This document shows, in pieces, positions 25,913 through 34,365 of a stretch of 64,000 nt of DNA (position 1 is its first letter; every line of letters begins with the position of its first letter). Source of the DNA: a virus; IMG/VR virus record IMGVR_UViG_3300035698_016988, positions 1 to 64,000 of that record. One strand, 5' to 3'. The position numbers were made by a program, and so were the translations under genes. The notes below the pieces were generated by a model. That model was not told where the DNA came from. It was given only the letters and a program-made list of their open reading frames with translations, and ran no database searches.

Positions 25913-27739
25913 ATGATTCAATTTGAAAAAATTATTCTAAAGAACTTTATGAGTTTCGGTAACGTACCGGAATCTATTCCGCTTGATCGTGATCCGTTGA
26001 CGTTGATCTTAGGAAGAAACCAAGACAAAGGTGAAGACTCAGGTGAAAGAAACGGTGTCGGTAAATCCAGTATCGTTATGGCGCTGCACTTTGCTTTGTT
26101 CGGTATTTCGGTTGGTAACAAAATTAAGAAGCCGAGGCTAATCAATAACATCAACCAAAAGAATCTTGAAGTAACTCTGAAGTTTACAATCGGAACGAAC
26201 TCTTACACGATTAAAAGATTCCGTAAACCAGAGAAGCTAGAGTTTTACGTCGACGATCACTTGGTAAATGACCAGGGCGGTGACGAAGGCCAAGGCGAGA
26301 TGGGAAAGACCCAAGAAGAAATCAATCGTGTAGTCGGCATCACTCCTGATATGTTTAACCAATCAATTTTCTTGTCAGTCATTACTGAGCCGTTCTTGCT
26401 ATTAGGATCCGGCAAGCAACGTGAATTGATCGAAGAACTTCTAGGAATTACTCAATTATCTGAGAAATCAACTACTCTCAAAGAAATGCTAAGAGAAACA
26501 AAGACTCAACTTGATAAAGAAACGTTCAAAATCAAAACAGTCGAAGAGACTAACGCCAGGGTTAGAACCAATCATGAAAAGTCAATTCAAAACTTGATGT
26601 CCAGAGAGACACGTTGGGAGAATGAGCATAGGTTCGAACTCGACGGGATTGAAAAAGAAATCGCTGAATACAGTGAGATCAGTATCAACCAAGAAATTAA
26701 AAATCACGAACTCCTAGCTGAATGGCTAGAAAAGAAAGTGGCACAAGATCAATTATTGTCTGAACTCGAAAGAACTAATATCGAAAAGGGTCGTCATGAT
26801 CGAGCAAAGCAACAAGCTTTCAAGCGTTTAGAAGATTTGGCAATTGATTTAGAATCAGCTGAAGAACAAAAATGCCCTACTTGTGGTCAGGACGTGCATG
26901 ACGATAAACACGATTCTGTCCTTGGCGGCATCGTTGAAAAAGTTGAGTTTTACGAAAAGCAACTCAGAGAAGAAGACGATAACCTGGCACAAATTGAGGA
27001 ACGCTTACAAGAACTAAGCGAACTAGAATTTGACCTAGGTAAAAAACCTGAGGTATTCTATACCGAAGTTAAGGATGCATACAAACACAAAAGTACGCTG
27101 AAATCTTTAAAAGATGGATTGAAATCTGAGAAATCAAAAACCAATCCTTACTCTGAGCAAATTGCTTCCCAACCAGATGCACCGTTGCAGGATATCAATT
27201 ATGAATTAAAGGATGATCTCATTCAACTTAGAGACCACCAAGAATTCCTTTACAAACTCTTAACCAGCAAAGACTCATCAGTTCGAAAACATATTATTAA
27301 CCAGAACATCAGTTACTTGAATGCTCGCTTAGGTATGTATCTCGAGAAACTAGGGTTGCCACATGAGGTTGAATTCTTGAATGACCTCAGCACTGAAATC
27401 ACAATGCTCGGTAATCAATATGACTTCTTGAGTCTATCTGCGGGTGAGCGGGCACGCTTGACTTTGGGACTTATTTTTGCTTTCCGTGATGTTTGGGAAT
27501 CACTAAATCAAACAATGAACATCTTCTTTGTTGACGAATTTCTCGACACGGGGTTAGATACAGCGGGTGTAGAATCCGCGCTTAAGACCTTGAAACAATT
27601 GGGTCGAGAACGCGCAAAGAACATTTTTATCATATCACACCGTGAAGAGTTAATTTCAAGATGTTCAAATGTATTAACGATTGTAAAAGAAGGCGGCTTC
27701 AGTCAACTCGAATGGCAAAGAGACGAGGAAGAAGTATGA
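25913..27739 (+). CDS. recombination ATPase, T4 gp46/Rad50/SbcC-like
   Basis: Walker A NGVGKS, zinc hook CPTC, signature LSAGE, Walker B FFVDE, ISH. Confidence 0.95.
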   Translation: MIQFEKIILKNFMSFGNVPESIPLDRDPLTLILGRNQDKGEDSGERNGVGKSSIVMALHFALFGISVGNKIKKPRLINNINQKNLEVTLKFTIGTNSYTIKRFRKPEKLEFYVDDHLVNDQGGDEGQGEMGKTQEEINRVVGITPDMFNQSIFLSVITEPFLLLGSGKQRELIEELLGITQLSEKSTTLKEMLRETKTQLDKETFKIKTVEETNARVRTNHEKSIQNLMSRETRWENEHRFELDGIEKEIAEYSEISINQEIKNHELLAEWLEKKVAQDQLLSELERTNIEKGRHDRAKQQAFKRLEDLAIDLESAEEQKCPTCGQDVHDDKHDSVLGGIVEKVEFYEKQLREEDDNLAQIEERLQELSELEFDLGKKPEVFYTEVKDAYKHKSTLKSLKDGLKSEKSKTNPYSEQIASQPDAPLQDINYELKDDLIQLRDHQEFLYKLLTSKDSSVRKHIINQNISYLNARLGMYLEKLGLPHEVEFLNDLSTEITMLGNQYDFLSLSAGERARLTLGLIFAFRDVWESLNQTMNIFFVDEFLDTGLDTAGVESALKTLKQLGRERAKNIFIISHREELISRCSNVLTIVKEGGFSQLEWQRDEEEV

Positions 27740-27930: not shown

Positions 27931-28035
27931 ATCTTTATTTAACACCTTGTCAAACTTTGTCAAGAATATTATTGATCAGATGAATGTACGGTGTTAGGAT
28001 TATAATAAGAAAAACACAAAACTAAAGGAGTTTAA

Positions 28036-28143
28036 ATGATTTTATTCGACGAAGAAGTTAGAGCAGAACTTATTGAATGCGGTTACAATCCCGATGATGA
28101 TGAAGATGTATTGGCCTGGGCGGAAGATTTACTAGAAGGTTAA
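28036..28143 (+). CDS. 35-aa highly acidic microprotein (not in ORF track)
   Basis: AAGGAG SD; MILFDEEVRAELIECGYNPDDDEDVLAWAEDLLEG; promoter-like sequence upstream. Confidence 0.7.
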   Translation: MILFDEEVRAELIECGYNPDDDEDVLAWAEDLLEG

Positions 28144-28146
28144 TGC

Positions 28147-28197
28147 TTGACTCCTGTTCAACTCGGTGTTACTTTAAGTGACACTGAGGAACAGGAG
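28147..28197 (+). promoter_or_regulatory. sigma70 promoter embedded in an SD-sequestering hairpin
   Basis: TTGACT-N17-TACTTT; inverted repeat 28151-28197 pairs with the AGGAG SD. Confidence 0.6.
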
Positions 28198-28203
28198 TTT
28201 TCA

Positions 28204-28565
28204 ATGCAAACATATTCCCAAGATCAAATCAACAATTTTCGTGCTTACCTGTCTTATAAGTAAACAGTCCGCACTTCCCTCATCATGTTTTTGCTAAAAT
28301 CAAAATCCCAACCTGCCCGACCATTAAAACTGCAAGTGATGCTATTGCGCTACTTTCCCAAAATGCAGTAGTCGATGCTTTTAATTCTTATCTAACGTAT
28401 ATGAACTTCGGTTCAAAAATTCAAGATCAACTCTTAAATCTGACCGTTAATCAGTTACAAGCAAAACGCTTAATCGCAAAACGGGACGTCGAGCCGATCA
28501 CAATCGAGCAGTTCTTAATTGAACGAGCAAAGCCTTCACCACAAAGCCTTCGCCACAAAGCCTAA
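28204..28565 (+). pseudogene. frameshifted hypothetical gene (about 119 aa if repaired)
   Basis: MQTYSQDQINNFRAYLSYK* continues in the -1 frame as VNSPHF...; internal repeat FRAYLSY(V)N / FNSYLTYMN. Confidence 0.6.
28528..28563 (+). repeat. 14-bp tandem repeat, about 2.5 copies
   Basis: CAAAGCCTTC(A/G)CCA x2 plus CAAAGCCT. Confidence 0.75.
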
Positions 28566-28568
28566 AAC

Positions 28569-28604
28569 AAAAAGCGCGGAATGTTAATTCGTTACGCGCT
28601 TTTT
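28569..28604. terminator. bidirectional intrinsic terminator
   Basis: AAAAAGCGCG...CGCGCTTTTT between convergent genes. Confidence 0.7.
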
Positions 28605-28621
28605 CCTTGTCTAAAAATGGA

Positions 28622-29131
28622 TTAAATCTTTTTCTTGTAAAGTTTGACCAATTCTTTTTTGGTCTCTTTTCCAGAAAGTTCTATATTATTATGTTCAAGG
28701 AGGATCGTTATTTGGTCCTCCTTTTTCATATTCTTAAATTTGGTAACTTTTTTATTCTTATGTGCTGGATGTTCGTAATCAGTTTGATTAGATTTGAGAT
28801 AAGATAAATGATCTTCCAGCCATCCAATATAATCAGTTTCTAGGCTCACGTGCCCAGATCGTCTAAAACGATAAAATAAAATTCCTTCCAATAAATTGCA
28901 TCTTCTGCACAAAACCCCACGGACTAAACCCGAATCGTGATTGTGGTCAACGTGGCGGTTCGTATTATCTTCAGTCAATAAATCTTCAGAGCAAATGCCG
29001 CATTTATAATCTTGTGCGACGAGCAACTCATCACGAATTCTTGCGATATCTTTTGATTTAAGAATTGTAACCAAGGGATCTCCATTTGAATTAATGTCAG
29101 GTAATGCCACAAGTGACCCATCTCCCAGCAA
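28622..29131 (-). CDS. endonuclease VII-like Holliday junction resolvase (T4 gp49-like)
   Basis: QDYKCGIC...VDHNHDSGLVRGVLCRRCNLLEG; true start probably slightly downstream. Confidence 0.88.
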   Translation of the reverse strand: MLGDGSLVALPDINSNGDPLVTILKSKDIARIRDELLVAQDYKCGICSEDLLTEDNTNRHVDHNHDSGLVRGVLCRRCNLLEGILFYRFRRSGHVSLETDYIGWLEDHLSYLKSNQTDYEHPAHKNKKVTKFKNMKKEDQITILLEHNNIELSGKETKKELVKLYKKKI

Positions 29132-29170
29132 ACCTATTAAAAGCTGTCCCCGACATTATATTTATCAACT

Positions 29171-29178
29171 TATAAATA
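29171..29178 (+). promoter_or_regulatory. T4-type late promoter TATAAATA
   Basis: Exact gp55 consensus upstream of the SD and ATG at 29204; a divergent GATAAATA serves the endo VII gene. Confidence 0.7.
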
Positions 29179-29203
29179 ATAGAAACAAAACAGGAGACAC
29201 CCA

Positions 29204-30082
29204 ATGAGCGAGATCAGGCTAAAGAATGCCCTTTCACAAATGAAAAACGAAGCTGTTTCGGAACGTAAAAATCATATCCGAAAGCATCGAAATCAACAAG
29301 GTGAGGCATGGTCAGTTGAATGCCAACTGGCTGACCCGCAAGACGCCAGACGAATGAACGGATTCATGCAACATGAATTGGATCTATATAATCAAATCCT
29401 AGAATATTTCAACCCAACTGCAAGAACTGCTCCAGAGATCTTCTCGGCTTTTACCGAAGAGCATATCAATTTGTTTGCATTCTTAGCACAGCACGGTATC
29501 GATATTCGAAGAATACGAAAAAGCAATCTACCAGATGTTATGAAAGAATTCGAAACGATTCTATTCGACGGTTCTATTAGTGAAAGAATGAAAATCCTAA
29601 TGGAATCAGTAGGCGGATCTTATTCGATGCTTGAATCAACCAAGAAAGCAATGGCTCGTGAGCTAATGAAATTCTATGCTGAGGACGCAAGAGTACGTCA
29701 GCAAAGAATGCCAAAAGGCGGTGACCAAGAATTTAAAACCCCACCTAAGTCTTTGGCACAGCAAACCCCAATCAGCAAGCGTCACTTGCAGATGAAAAGA
29801 GACCAAGTCAAAATCAAATTCAACGAAAAAGAAGACCGTTCGGAAATTTCGATCCCTTATTGTTCTTCACCGATTTACGTGAAAGAAGTTGATCTATCAG
29901 ATCGTAATTCTTGGAATATTATGATCGTTCACCAAACACCAAATGTAATGGTCCTACCAGGATCACCTTGGGTTTTAGACTTCAGGGGCATCAAGAACGA
30001 TTACTTGGTTGATTATTTAGACAACCGTAACGATAAGTCAGGAGTATTCTGGCATGCCAAATCAAACAGGAGTGGAAGATAA
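29204..30082 (+). CDS. hypothetical protein, candidate RuvC-less TnpB/Cas12f-like (WED+REC) nucleic-acid-binding protein
   Basis: The gene itself is solid (CAGGAG SD, late promoter). The homology rests only on visual pattern similarity (...LYNQILE..., ...ISIPY..PIYVK...). Confidence 0.45.
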   Translation: MSEIRLKNALSQMKNEAVSERKNHIRKHRNQQGEAWSVECQLADPQDARRMNGFMQHELDLYNQILEYFNPTARTAPEIFSAFTEEHINLFAFLAQHGIDIRRIRKSNLPDVMKEFETILFDGSISERMKILMESVGGSYSMLESTKKAMARELMKFYAEDARVRQQRMPKGGDQEFKTPPKSLAQQTPISKRHLQMKRDQVKIKFNEKEDRSEISIPYCSSPIYVKEVDLSDRNSWNIMIVHQTPNVMVLPGSPWVLDFRGIKNDYLVDYLDNRNDKSGVFWHAKSNRSGR

Positions 30083-30203
30083 TGTCACAACTTTTAGAAA
30101 CTTGCTTTTGCTTAGTGCAGGCCTAGTAATGAATCCAAATAACGGAAATATGGTTATTATTTTCTTAACTCGATATTCGGAAGAGCCAACGGACGCCGAA
30201 TAA
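30054..30203 (+). CDS. possible 49-aa ORF overlapping the 3' end of the upstream gene
   Basis: AGGAG 9 nt before the ATG; MPNQTGVEDNVTTFRNLLLLSAG... Confidence 0.25.
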   Translation: MPNQTGVEDNVTTFRNLLLLSAGLVMNPNNGNMVIIFLTRYSEEPTDAE

Positions 30204-30208
30204 TCTTA

Positions 30209-30237
30209 TTGACGCTCGCAGTTTAGATATATAGTAT
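30209..30237 (+). promoter_or_regulatory. sigma70-type promoter facing the non-coding region
   Basis: TTGACG-N17-TAGTAT. Confidence 0.65.
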
Positions 30238-30243
30238 CAGATA

Positions 30244-30960
30244 GTTAGAACATAGTGACTCAGATATGGTGGTATACCACCGACGGAAGGGATGCCTAGG
30301 TATCAGGAACGTCGTAAAACCCGCGTCACACGGGACCGCAATGAAAACTTCCAGGAAGAGGCACCATCCGAACTGGGACAGACGGCGGAATATTTACATG
30401 CACTCAATGAATCGGCGAGGTATGTGATAAGGATTAAGATTTTAATCTGAAATAGGTCGCGGATGCTGATGGCATCTTTGAAAATGAAGAACCATATCCA
30501 AAAATTAGAAGGCACAAATTAGGCACAACACTACCATAGGCAAAAAAATCAGGTGAAATGAATACCGCAAGGCACAAATCAGGGCGACGACCCGTAGGCA
30601 CAAGGATTTGGATCATGCTCTGTCTCGAGACACTGACAACATGAACTCCGTTAGAAACTTTGAAGGTATGAAGTAATAACGGACGCCGGTTTTGGCTTAG
30701 CCACAAAACCTAGAGCGATAGGCGGGATTCGGAAACCCCTCGTTTGTATAAACTCTACATACCCTGACCATACGATGTACCATACGGAAATCGTCCTTTT
30801 GCCCTATTTCCAGTTACTTGGAGGCGGGGGCAAAAGGACTGGACTCACCCAACGGAATGTGTCTTGTTCAAGCCTCATCCAATAGACTAATATGACTTGA
30901 AATGGTTTTAATGATGTTTCTAGAAAAAGTTACCAATGAAAACTGTTAGGTTTTCATTAG
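30244..30960 (+). ncRNA. putative large structured non-coding RNA of unknown family
   Basis: No + strand ORF of 60 aa or more; own promoter; many hairpins including a 12-bp stem 30793-30804/30828-30839; AGGCACAA repeats. Ends are approximate. Confidence 0.62.
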
Positions 30961-31013
30961 ATCTTTAGATCTTAGATAATTGTTATATTGTTTCACACTT
31001 GGAATCTTTGCGA

Positions 31014-31223
31014 CTATCGTGAGGCTTTCTTCATTGCTCTATGATATTCTTCGTAGGCATCAACCATTGATTGTCTATCTTCTCTGGTAGAGAGCCACAA
31101 TTCTGTCCAACCAATTCGGCCTTCCATATACATCATTATCTGGCTAATCTCTGACCGGATAGCTTTTGCCTCATCTTCGATTTCAGTGAGGAAACCGGAA
31201 ATTCCCTCATCGTCTAGGAGCAA
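31014..31223 (-). CDS. C-terminal extension of the hub/tail-assembly chaperone, probably made by -1 frameshift
   Basis: TTG start without SD; the frame is open back to the slippery heptamer at 31235-31241. Confidence 0.7.
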   Translation of the reverse strand: MLLDDEGISGFLTEIEDEAKAIRSEISQIMMYMEGRIGWTELWLSTREDRQSMVDAYEEYHRAMKKASR

Positions 31224-31228
31224 AAGCT

Positions 31229-32071
31229 TTAGTCGAAAAAATTTGAGGGATCAAATGTTAAATTTTCTTCGACATATTCATGTTGACAATGAGTACAAAC
31301 ACAATTCTGTGAATTCGGAACGCCGGCTTCATTAAGGCTTTTGATTTTAAATCGGATATTGTCTACTTCTTTTGTATCAAGTTCTTTGACCATAGGTTCA
31401 ATATGTTTTCTTTCTTTAACGAAAATTCCGTCAGGGGTTTGAACTCCCATTACTGAATCACAAACCAACTCGAAGTTCATCTTAACCATTTTGTCAAAAC
31501 TATTTGCAAAAGTTCTAATCTTTTCTTCGTCGGCCATTTCTTCTCGGTCGACTAATTGCATAATTTTTGTTTGTTCGAACTGAGCTAGGTTTGACTTTGT
31601 GCTGGTCTTAAAATCGTGCGGTTTCATTACCAAAGTCAAACCGTTTGATAATTCGATAGAGTTTTCGTCATCTAAGAAAGTCATTGTATCGATAGCCATT
31701 CGAATTGATCGGTCAAATTCGTTTATTTCATTACATTCAGGGCAAGTTGATTTAAAATCAATTGTATCTCCGTAAGACGCAAATCTAATTGCTAGCATCA
31801 AAGCGGTTACATCAGGAACAACCAACATTGAAGGATCTCCTTTAATTCCCGGAACACATGATTTGATAACGTCCAACATTCCTTGACCGTTTAGCAAGGC
31901 GTCTGGGCTTTTTAATGAAAGGTCATCAGATGCGGTCATAGCCTTAATATCGAGTTCATCGTTATTATTCAATTCCAAAAAGTTCGGAGGATAGAATAAT
32001 CCTCTTGAAGGTAAAGGAATTGAAATTTTAGTCTGGCGACCATAACCGGCGAGTGGATTTGCTGTCTGTGA
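31229..32071 (-). CDS. baseplate hub assembly / tail chaperone (T4 gp26/gp51-like)
   Basis: NPL...LPSRG.FY, MTASDD..LKSPDALLNG, CPEC and CTHC zinc motifs, NFF terminus; start placed at MSQTANPL. Confidence 0.8.
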   Translation of the reverse strand, partial: SQTANPLAGYGRQTKISIPLPSRGLFYPPNFLELNNNDELDIKAMTASDDLSLKSPDALLNGQGMLDVIKSCVPGIKGDPSMLVVPDVTALMLAIRFASYGDTIDFKSTCPECNEINEFDRSIRMAIDTMTFLDDENSIELSNGLTLVMKPHDFKTSTKSNLAQFEQTKIMQLVDREEMADEEKIRTFANSFDKMVKMNFELVCDSVMGVQTPDGIFVKERKHIEPMVKELDTKEVDNIRFKIKSLNEAGVPNSQNCVCTHCQHEYVEENLTFDPSNFFD

Positions 32072-32127
32072 CATCGGGTTCTCCAAATTGGTAAATAAAA
32101 CTACTAGACTTATTTATTCGAGGAATC

Positions 32128-34365
32128 ATGGCTTCTGCAGACGATATTTTAGATGGCTTAGAAATGTATGCTAGCCGTGCGGGCGATTGGTCAACGGAAG
32201 AAACTGCGAAAGATATGCTTGCAGTTATCACCGAGATTGCTAAAAAAGCCGGCGTTTCACAGAAAACCTTAGAAAATACTGCCAAGAAGTTCGAAAAACC
32301 TTCGGCGAATATAAATGAATTCTCCAAACAAAATAAGACTTATCAATCAAAGATTTCGGTTACTGTTCAAGAACTTAATAATTCGTTAGGATTGGGAAAA
32401 ACTAAGTTCGGTTCTATGCTAGGAAATGTAGACAACCTCGGTAATTCAATCAGATCCGGAACTGGATTATTCTCGAAATTGAATCCGGTTATGTTAGGTC
32501 TTACTGGAGTTTTTGTTGCAGTTACCGCAGCAGTTAGTACCTTGGTTGAATATATAATGGACTCCGTGAACGTGTATATGCGTTTGCGTGATGTTGGTAT
32601 TACTTTTGCTGGCGGTCTGGTTGAAATGCGATACGCAGCAGCTAACGCGTCAATGGGATTTGAAGAGTTTAGCAAAACACTAGCAGAAAACTCAAAAGTA
32701 ATTACAGCATTCGGTGGTGATGGCGCTAGACAGTTTAGTATTTTGTCTAAAGCAGCAAGAGACACAGCAACAATGCAAAGAGGGTTGGCATTTACAACCG
32801 AACAAGTGAATGAGTATTTGTTAGATTATTTGGAAGTACAACGCCAGACAGGTCTATTGGATCGACTGTCAGCCGGCGAGACAGCTAGACGCACTTCCGA
32901 TTACTTAGAGTCGTTAGATATGTTCTCACAAGCGTTAGGTAAATCTAGAAGCGAACTTGCTGAGTCTAGTAAAAGTATGACTGAGGGTATTCGGATTCAA
33001 GCAGGTCTTAGAGCTATGCCTAAAGAGATCAGAGATACCGTTATGGATAACTTGAAAAGAGCTGGTCCTGCTTTTGATGCTATTGGTCCTGAATTCGGTG
33101 AAATGGTAAAAGAAATGATAGCAACAGGCGGTCGGCCGGTATCAGAAGCTGCGAAGATGTTTATAGCAGCTTCACCTGAACTCGGTTCACAAGTCATGGC
33201 TCTTGCTGACAGAATGGGTAAAACTAGACTTTCTAACGAAGATTTCCGAGAAGAAATGATAAAACTCAAAAAGAATGTAGGCCCCGTGGCTGACGATATG
33301 TCCCAACTCGTTGCTCAACTCGGTGAGTCCCAACCAGCCTTTGCTAGTTTTATGGGTTCACTATTGAATATAGAACGAATGAAAATAGGAGGGAAAGGGG
33401 AAGTTGATCCGTTGGTTAGATTGATGTTGAAACTTGGTGAAACCATGAAATCTATTACCGGTGCATTTGACTCTATGAAGGCAAGTATCTTCGAAAATCT
33501 AGAAGGACCTCTAGAGCAATTTGCAACATGGATGAATACAAAAGTTCTACCTGGCTTGAAAACATTTTTTGATGAAATTATAGGAATTTTTCAAGGCGAA
33601 GGTGATTTTGGCGACAAACTAGTCAATGCCTTTTCTCATGTTTTTGATAGATTAGCAGAAACTCTCGGTCCTATTCTTTCGGATATGATAACTTTTATGG
33701 TTGATTCTGTTTTAAGAAGTTTGCATATTGAAACCGATGCGATGGAACAACGAAAGAAGTTCAGAGAGAAAGAAAAGGAAATTCAGTCCGGAAAAAGTAT
33801 GTCAGCGGAAGAATTTAAAGCAATGGCAAGAGACTTGATGATTGATGTTAGAGACGGTGATGTTTCCAAAGCTGATGCAAATAAAATGATGCAGAAAGTC
33901 CGTGATGCTCAATCAGAATTATTGAAAAGACAAGGCGACGGTTTTAACCCAGTCGGTAATATGAATGCATATAATGAAAATATTTATGCAAACCCTAACA
34001 CACAGCAAAGTTCTATGCGCCCAGTCGGTAATATGAATGCATATAATGAAAATATTTATGCAAACCCTAACACACAGCAAAGTTCTATGCGCATCGGTCG
34101 CCGCGTCACCCGAACCGGCCCAAGCTTTGCCCACGCCGGTATCAATAATGCAATCCCGAAACAACAGAATACTCAAATGCCTAAGGTAACTCCAACAAAA
34201 CCTGACATTAAAGAAGAAGAGAATGGTTTCGGGTCGACTTTGATCAATAAAATTTCAGAACTAATTGATGTGAGTAATGCAAACTTAACTCAGAATGCGG
34301 CCTTGGCTAGGAAACAAAAAAGAGCTACCGATAAAGCCGGTGAAAAAGTAGAAGGATCGTTCTAG
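32128..34365 (+). CDS. tape measure protein (putative)
   Basis: Long helical A/G/M-rich protein with a hydrophobic segment; divergent from the chaperone gene and upstream of the portal. Confidence 0.7.
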   Translation: MASADDILDGLEMYASRAGDWSTEETAKDMLAVITEIAKKAGVSQKTLENTAKKFEKPSANINEFSKQNKTYQSKISVTVQELNNSLGLGKTKFGSMLGNVDNLGNSIRSGTGLFSKLNPVMLGLTGVFVAVTAAVSTLVEYIMDSVNVYMRLRDVGITFAGGLVEMRYAAANASMGFEEFSKTLAENSKVITAFGGDGARQFSILSKAARDTATMQRGLAFTTEQVNEYLLDYLEVQRQTGLLDRLSAGETARRTSDYLESLDMFSQALGKSRSELAESSKSMTEGIRIQAGLRAMPKEIRDTVMDNLKRAGPAFDAIGPEFGEMVKEMIATGGRPVSEAAKMFIAASPELGSQVMALADRMGKTRLSNEDFREEMIKLKKNVGPVADDMSQLVAQLGESQPAFASFMGSLLNIERMKIGGKGEVDPLVRLMLKLGETMKSITGAFDSMKASIFENLEGPLEQFATWMNTKVLPGLKTFFDEIIGIFQGEGDFGDKLVNAFSHVFDRLAETLGPILSDMITFMVDSVLRSLHIETDAMEQRKKFREKEKEIQSGKSMSAEEFKAMARDLMIDVRDGDVSKADANKMMQKVRDAQSELLKRQGDGFNPVGNMNAYNENIYANPNTQQSSMRPVGNMNAYNENIYANPNTQQSSMRIGRRVTRTGPSFAHAGINNAIPKQQNTQMPKVTPTKPDIKEEENGFGSTLINKISELIDVSNANLTQNAALARKQKRATDKAGEKVEGSF
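33949..34092 (+). repeat. perfect 72-bp tandem duplication, in frame
   Basis: PVGNMNAYNENIYANPNTQQSSMR encoded twice by identical DNA. Confidence 0.95.

Follow-up and report, generated by a model that had tools for sequence, protein, structure and literature searches.

Introduction

All Cas12 enzymes descend from TnpB, and in TnpB and Cas12f the lobe formed by the WED and REC domains holds the guide RNA and the RNA-DNA duplex. In the domesticated descendants TldR, dCas12f, and Cas12k the RuvC lobe is still present, inactivated or trimmed, and targeting relies on short guides whose targets can be identified. Here we describe a locus in a 64,000-nucleotide (nt) stretch of viral DNA (the window; positions 1 to 64,000 of IMG/VR record IMGVR_UViG_3300035698_016988) in which the gene for a 292-amino-acid (aa) protein, called half-TnpB below, is followed by a tract encoding a large structured RNA. 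The module is a conserved two-gene unit of a lineage of giant T4-like phages. Judged from its predicted structure, the first gene encodes a domesticated, nuclease-less descendant of TnpB that consists of the WED+REC lobe only. The second, on the same strand, begins some 160 nt further downstream and is predicted from sequence comparison to specify an RNA of roughly 650 nt with about 25 helices under compensatory change. We are highly confident on both counts: the protein is a TnpB-type lobe lacking RuvC, and the large structured RNA encoded by the tract is genuine.

Comparison with the closest described systems brings out what is unusual about this pair. With TnpB of IS200/IS605 elements (ISDra2 TnpB; PDB 8H1J, 8EXA, and 8EX9) the locus shares the WED+REC fold and, as with omega RNA (also called right-end RNA, or reRNA), a structured RNA encoded on the gene's own strand, immediately beyond its 3' end. 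Unlike TnpB, the phage protein is without the RuvC/zinc-finger half and the nuclease triad, and the locus has neither transposon ends nor TnpA but occupies a fixed position in the core genome. The omega RNA of TnpB measures about 130 to 250 nt, whereas the phage RNA measures 650 nt, is preceded by a promoter of its own, lies clear of the open reading frame (ORF), and yielded no guide in the phage genomes searched. TldR (bioRxiv 10.1101/2023.11.30.569447), dCas12f with its extracytoplasmic function (ECF) sigma factor (PMC13472631; PDB 9N9C), and Cas12k are likewise domesticated, noncutting descendants of TnpB or Cas12, and some nuclease-dead relatives are phage encoded. The phage protein differs from TldR and dCas12f in having lost the whole RuvC lobe, and no guide-target pair was found in the phage genomes searched.

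The RNA invites comparison with the large noncoding RNAs GOLLD, ROOL, and OLE, which likewise exceed 500 nt, form many helices, and are associated with phages; the phage RNA described here, however, has no Rfam match to any of them. We know of no TnpB-like protein neighbor for GOLLD, ROOL, or OLE. A further point of comparison is EGFOA (Rfam RF02955), which is described as coming from unusually large intergenic regions and as assembling into trimers and dimers (bioRxiv 10.64898/2026.07.01.735769). EGFOA is a domain of roughly 108 nt, as against whole RNAs of 650 to 850 nt here. A search of the literature found no paper describing a pair made of a half-TnpB protein and a large RNA.

Results

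The protein gene (29204-30082, + strand; ORF call) is an orphan, as had been proposed from the sequence alone: its 292-aa product gave zero matches in Pfam, PHROG, NCBIfam, and PADLOC. A first AlphaFold model, built from 7 sequences (predicted local distance difference test [pLDDT] score, 70.5), produced a match list composed almost purely of TnpB, Cas12f, Cas12k, Cas12g, and Fanzor, and an AlphaFold2 model built from an 85-sequence alignment reached a pLDDT of 90.6 and a predicted template modeling (pTM) score of 0.85. When structures were compared by VIA-align against 48,161 chains, model residues 29 to 264 aligned onto the N-terminal WED+REC lobe of dCas12f, Cas12f, and TnpB. The closest match was dCas12f (9n9c; Z 10.4, 166 residues aligned), followed by Cas12f (8dzj; Z 10.2), 9nzp_B (Z 10.1), and TnpB (8h1j, residues 1 to 174; Z 10.0, 170 residues aligned). 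The top alignments covered 165 to 172 residues at 3.4 to 4.3 A and fell on the N-terminal 174 to 211 residues of their targets. All 30 of the best 30 rows were TnpB, Cas12, or Fanzor, and the first unrelated fold appeared at Z <= 4.9. At the level of sequence, the family profile matches Fanzor1 (9cf0_P; E 1.5e-4).

The feature that marks membership in this group, an N-terminal WED domain split by a helical REC domain, is present in the model, and the protein ends 28 residues beyond the WED domain. The C-terminal RuvC domain with its D-E-D triad and the zinc-finger/TNB insertion are both absent from the protein, and no downstream frame carries a RuvC domain. An exhaustive profile search recovered about 200 family clusters (50% identity, E <= 1e-3); in the 150 best of these, members measure 141 to 345 aa, and no homologues of 605 to 2000 aa were found. 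RuvC therefore appears to be missing from the family as a whole, judged on those 150 best-listed clusters. Conserved motifs include ELxxYN, KRHxQ, HQxPG, TPW, and a C-terminal YLxxYxD. The predicted structure thus points to a TnpB-type recognition lobe without the entire RuvC/zinc-finger half. The sequence-only reading had called the protein TnpB-like and RuvC-less and had named an unrelated fold as grounds for giving up that call; such a fold was looked for in the structural comparison, and the call stands.

Directly 3' of the gene lies an ORF-poor tract of 930 nt (30083-31013). A sigma-70-type promoter on the + strand (TTGACG-17-TAGTAT, 30209-30237) precedes an RNA core of about 630 to 650 nt (30244-30876, + strand), the 5' and 3' ends of which are closed by a long-range helix. 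The -35 element, the 17-nt spacer, and the -10 element are kept in the two relatives that carry the same RNA type (TTGACA-17-TAGTAT in L001 and TTGACT-17-TAATAT in L040). In L040 (880-1000, - strand) the RNA promoter region and about 45 nt upstream of it are tandemly duplicated, giving two copies of ...ATTATTGACTATCCAATCAAGACTATATAATAT....

The case for structure comes from covariation among three phages, namely, the window, L001, and L040. Between the window and L001 the RNA region is 81% identical and the adjoining proteins are 64% identical. RNAalifold predicts 147 pairs in 26 helices, with 94.9% of cells paired. Compensatory changes, in which both sides of a pair differ, affect 40 of the 147 pairs, compared with 15.9 +/- 3.0 in column shuffles (reached in 0 of 500); controls in which the partners were slid by 1 to 3 columns gave 2 to 12 such pair changes. 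Several helices show three different pair types across the three sequences. Because of invariant G-U pairs and the promoter, we place the RNA on the + strand. The folding energy of the single sequence is unexceptional (z -1.26, + strand), so the argument for structure rests on covariation. Two small ORFs in the tract (53 and 52 aa) were considered as genes and rejected, relatives carrying 1-, 2-, 5-, and 8-nt indels there.

Searches of Rfam 15 returned no family for 28000-32500 at E <= 1 or for 30150-31013 at E <= 10, save for two chance-level rows; GOLLD, ROOL, OLE, HEARO/IscB omega RNA, group I and II introns, RNase P, transfer-messenger RNA (tmRNA), and 6S RNA all went unmatched. AGGCAC/AGGCA repeats are clustered in the middle of the RNA (30510-30601, + strand), a region that is for the most part unpaired. 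AGGCAC occurs 13 times in the 74.6-kb record, 5 of the 13 copies lying within 30359-30596; L001 and L040 carry AGGCA(A/C)AA-like repeats, and TAGGCAC occurs four times in L002, a more distant relative.

Beyond the last conserved block, ACGGAA, the sequences of the window, L001, and L040 diverge for about 55 to 90 nt, leaving in the window a nonconserved 3' tail (30877-30932, + strand) that is the only place able to seat a 3' guide. A hairpin at the point where the two strands converge (30933-30960), terminator-like on the - strand, is probably a terminator for the converging transcripts; L001 and L040 have a hairpin of different sequence at the matching place. It is followed by a tandem TAGATCT-N-TAGATCT (30958-30972) that is kept in all three phages, single copies of TAGATCT elsewhere being at chance frequency. 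The GC content of the tail is 0.34 to 0.37. The AT-rich palindromic tail and the separately promoted structured tract, both first read from the letters alone, are thus borne out.

Further loci were collected by back-translating conserved protein motifs into a degenerate DNA pattern, which was run against IMG/VR, JGI metagenomes, and GTDB contigs, with confirmation by hidden Markov model. An ORF-poor tract of 0.6 to 1.1 kb lies directly 3' of the gene and on the same strand in 16 of the 18 distinct loci with enough sequence, a count that is not a random sample because the pattern samples about 28% of the family. The sequence-only reading had asked whether a similar long intergenic tract is syntenic in relatives, and had named failure of protein and RNA to co-occur as what would refute a linked pair; the tract was found, and the co-occurrence comparison did not refute the pair. 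The conserved order is a Holliday-junction resolvase (-), half-TnpB (+), the RNA (+), the baseplate hub (-), a tape-measure-like gene, and the portal. In every clade the module keeps this one site between resolvase and baseplate hub, across proteins that are only 22 to 30% identical.

The gene divergent from half-TnpB is always a small structure-specific nuclease, either endonuclease VII, RusA-like, or PDDEXK (PF24608), at 28622-29131 in the window, L032:2355-2891, L034:948-1502, and L042:1281-1823. Here the gene family, drawn from three unrelated families, has been replaced and the position is unchanged.

The tracts fall into types that are mutually nonalignable: the window type (the window, L001, and L040), types B1 and B2, and the tracts of L042, L037, and L002. 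In the type B2 RNA, 67 of 187 predicted pairs are compensatory in five phages. Model R1, of the window-type RNA, gave zero matches on clade-B loci. The geometry of L002 is the same though its protein is only about 29% identical. Model R2, built without L002, misses that locus with filters on and with filters off finds only a weak match (E 0.08) at a G-rich hairpin; we therefore call the L002 tract syntenic, its homology not being established. An R1 match on L002 and a pattern match were discarded as circular.

Sister clades bring in EGFOA. The tracts of L018, L014, L008, and L042 score 34.3 to 37.5 bits against the EGFOA model, for which the cutoff is 37.7, and these near-threshold matches lie at a fixed place, 580 to 730 nt into the tract (type B2 included). 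The window RNA, in contrast, has no match to EGFOA even at E <= 10, and no relationship between it and the clade-B RNAs was detected. The module may explain where part of the orphan EGFOA family lives.

Discussion

The interpretation that we favor is that protein and RNA form a ribonucleoprotein particle, a proposal for which we judge the chances to be about even. In such a particle the half-TnpB protein would bind the large RNA or some constant portion thereof, and the complex would act without cutting DNA. The RNA would then serve as a large, exchangeable structured body, whether scaffold, multimerizing platform, or decoy, unlike the classical omega RNA with its short guide. The recombination genes and the baseplate hub that flank the module, together with an anti-defense gene in L001, suggest that the particle takes part in DNA transactions or in the conflict between phage and host. 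That gene (L001 ORF 3726-4076, + strand) lies between the half-TnpB gene and the RNA promoter and is Tad2-like (PF11195; 8.5e-27), Tad2 being Thoeris anti-defense 2. We tentatively extend this proposal to a new class of phage ribonucleoprotein, in which the RNA-holding lobe of TnpB would be the constant partner of interchangeable, self-folding RNA bodies of 0.6 to 0.9 kb. One type of body would carry the multimerizing EGFOA domain, the bodies would be swapped between phages like cassettes, and the particle would act in the conflict between phage and host or in replication and recombination of DNA, the Cas12 lineage having been recycled beyond short-guide targeting.

Several observations weigh against a particle of protein and RNA. 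L016 and L031, compared with L041 (contigs of 42 to 464 kb), encode a 100% identical protein followed by unrelated RNA bodies, B1 against B2. The swapped bodies measure about 0.8 to 1.1 kb; on either side of them the loci have in common the 49 nt that follow the stop codon and the downstream flank (90 to 94% identity). This looks like a cassette-type exchange with an invariant 27-nt motif as its 5' boundary. Since an identical protein carries unrelated bodies, it cannot be tuned to a particular one. In clade B, a short motif after the stop codon is the sole constant part: AGATCGAnnTCAGATGTAGCTGAATCG, just 3' of the stop codon, is identical or one base off in 9 of 10 loci and more diverged in L043. 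The RNA has also been met without the protein. In Sinorhizobium phage Phosso (L044, PV764938; 469 kb), an unannotated 1.0-kb gap between resolvase and hub (12411-13424 of L044; 229759-230772 of PV764938) holds an EGFOA-like RNA domain homologous to the clade-B2 RNA (blastn, 2e-13; 20 of 44 pairs compensatory), and the family protein was found nowhere in Phosso or in Pseudomonas phage PA5oct. Conversely, half-TnpB is followed directly by real genes in L029 (gp47/gp46-like genes) and L034 (an arginase). The RNA, moreover, is not cut from the mRNA of the protein as in TnpB, because it has its own promoter in the window and a Tad2-like gene intervenes in L001; that intervening gene makes the RNA of the window clade a separate transcription unit. 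Finally, the sequencing runs that contain the locus are salt-lake DNA runs only, with no RNA run among those listed.

The separate occurrence of RNA and protein, the exchange of RNA bodies, and the RNA's own promoter speak for protein and RNA being neighbors and not partners. The RNA would then be an independent, lineage-wide structured RNA in the manner of EGFOA, GOLLD, and ROOL, and half-TnpB would share its slot while serving a role of its own, such as binding DNA or branched DNA together with the adjoining recombination enzymes. The constant presence of a structure-specific nuclease in the divergent upstream position fits such a role, and the trimers and dimers that EGFOA RNAs make in vitro are RNA only. 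Coincidence sits less easily with the gene being immediately 5' of the RNA and on the same strand at so many loci, with the retained fold being exactly the RNA-holding lobe of an RNA-guided family, and with the clade-B motif that lies between stop codon and RNA. That motif occurs only where the protein gene is present, being absent where the protein is absent and from the window's clade. We regard two unlinked neighbors as possible without inclining toward them. Should a particle form, the swap data suggest that what the protein holds on to is some constant element or generic feature, not the variable body.

A true RNA-guided DNA binder, of the kind represented by TldR, dCas12f, and Cas12k, in which a short guide would find a site in host DNA and the complex would repress, activate, or mark it without cleavage, is in our estimation unlikely. 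In its favor, reading the target-adjacent motif (TAM) and holding the duplex of guide and target are tasks of the WED+REC lobe, and the structure that comes closest to the model is that of a Cas12f that is nuclease-dead by nature. The RNA also takes the position of an omega RNA, 3' of its gene, and the tail at 30877-30932 varies between close relatives in the way that guides do. Half of the duplex-binding channel, contributed by RuvC, is nevertheless missing, and the RNA exceeds every omega RNA and every Cas12f guide RNA in length by a factor of 3 to 5. The target search, which covered phage genomes, gave no RNA match of at least 13 nt in the 74.6-kb record, where a few 12-mers occurred at chance level, and nothing significant in the genomes of two relatives (G001, 296 kb, and G002, complete, 465 kb; best E 0.25 to 0.5). 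RNA-guided DNA binding by the pair had been put forward in the sequence-only reading, which named a guide match for the 3' segment of the RNA as something to search for; the proposal has found no support so far, the exchangeable RNA body and the separate occurrence of RNA and protein telling further against it.

The same reading offered, as a second possibility, an origin primer controlled by the protein. A promoter-driven RNA would in that case stay hybridized as an R-loop or become a replication primer, and the protein would stabilize or control the R-loop. The module does sit among recombination and replication genes, including the resolvase and a gp46/Rad50-like gene (25913-27739, + strand; gene call), an RNase H gene lies beside the RNA in L032 and Phosso, and the REC lobe in relatives contacts RNA-DNA hybrids. 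Yet compensatory change has preserved some 25 helices, which points to a free RNA that folds and not to a hybrid, the RNA body has been swapped between otherwise near-identical phages, and there is no composition or GC-skew switch at the site. Support for an origin element is contextual, and we consider it improbable.

A decaying IS200/IS605-type element, in which a truncated tnpB pseudogene would stand beside the remains of its omega RNA, would account for a TnpB-like protein with an RNA at its 3' side but is contradicted by the conservation data and scarcely credible, given intact ORFs of uniform length in about 200 diverged clusters, a phage-core position that has held while the proteins diverged, the single copy of the protein gene in the record with neither TnpA nor a second copy seen, and an RNA under strong structural selection.

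The pair has consequences whichever interpretation is preferred. Listed members of about 200 diverged clusters have dropped the whole nuclease half, unlike TldR, dCas12f, and Cas12k, and the gene sits at a fixed position in the core of giant phage genomes beside an RNA that ranks among the largest structured ones seen in phages. Should protein and RNA bind each other, the Cas12 scaffold would have been put to a new purpose, the protein would offer a compact module of about 260 residues for binding RNA, and the orphan EGFOA class of RNAs would gain a protein and a genomic context. Even if they do not, there would be an undescribed class of large RNAs conserved in the lineage related to PA5oct and Phosso, experimentally reachable through cultured Phosso, and a stand-alone WED+REC protein linked to recombination genes. 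Cassette-like exchange of RNA bodies under an identical protein is unusual in itself.

Source phage and flanking features

The 74.6-kb IMG/VR source record belongs to an uncultured giant T4-like phage from salt-lake metagenomes. Four sequencing runs that contain the locus in part show the same phage at low depth with zero variants. By the gp46-like protein, the nearest cultured relatives are Phosso (43% identity) and PA5oct (40%). Searches of GenBank phages by blastn with the whole unit, by tblastn with P0001, P0014, and P0050, and by blastn with the clade-B2 RNA at default scoring gave no match. PA5oct (L045, NC_071039) has, between resolvase and hub, a 1.5-kb stretch with ORFs of only 38 to 50 aa (12018-13530 of L045). 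This stretch shows no similarity to the RNAs of this study, and the four published noncoding RNAs of PA5oct lie elsewhere in its genome (PMC7318152). The syntenic gaps of both Phosso and PA5oct are probably unannotated large RNA genes. The L029 locus, with half-TnpB and then gp47/gp46-like genes, is a 117-kb contig (JANWZV010000001.1) labeled as a Candidatus Dojkabacteria metagenome-assembled genome; it may be a phage contig in the wrong bin, that of a member of the candidate phyla radiation (CPR).

The neighbors of the module in the window are those named in the sequence-only reading. Endonuclease VII is encoded upstream on the - strand (Pfam, 2.3e-16). Downstream, past the strand-convergence point at 31013, a 69-aa ORF (31014-31223, - strand; gene call) without a family match in Pfam or PHROG scans is followed by the baseplate-hub gene (31229-32086, - strand; phrog_150). 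In the spacer that separates the protein gene from the RNA promoter (30054-30203, + strand), a 49-aa ORF has no Pfam match. The spacer can be aligned, though loosely, to the 3' end of the Tad2-like ORF of L001 and may, on this alignment, be a degraded remnant of the gene that is intact there; the slot may be a hot spot for counter-defense cargo.

A late promoter had also been proposed for the protein gene. The box TATAAATA (29171-29178, + strand), read from the sequence as the T4 late-promoter consensus, is indeed present 25 nt 5' of the start codon; because the motif has 2 copies in the 74.6-kb record when 4.9 are expected by chance, we do not accept it as the late promoter of this phage. At the position matching the box, L001 carries CATAAATA.

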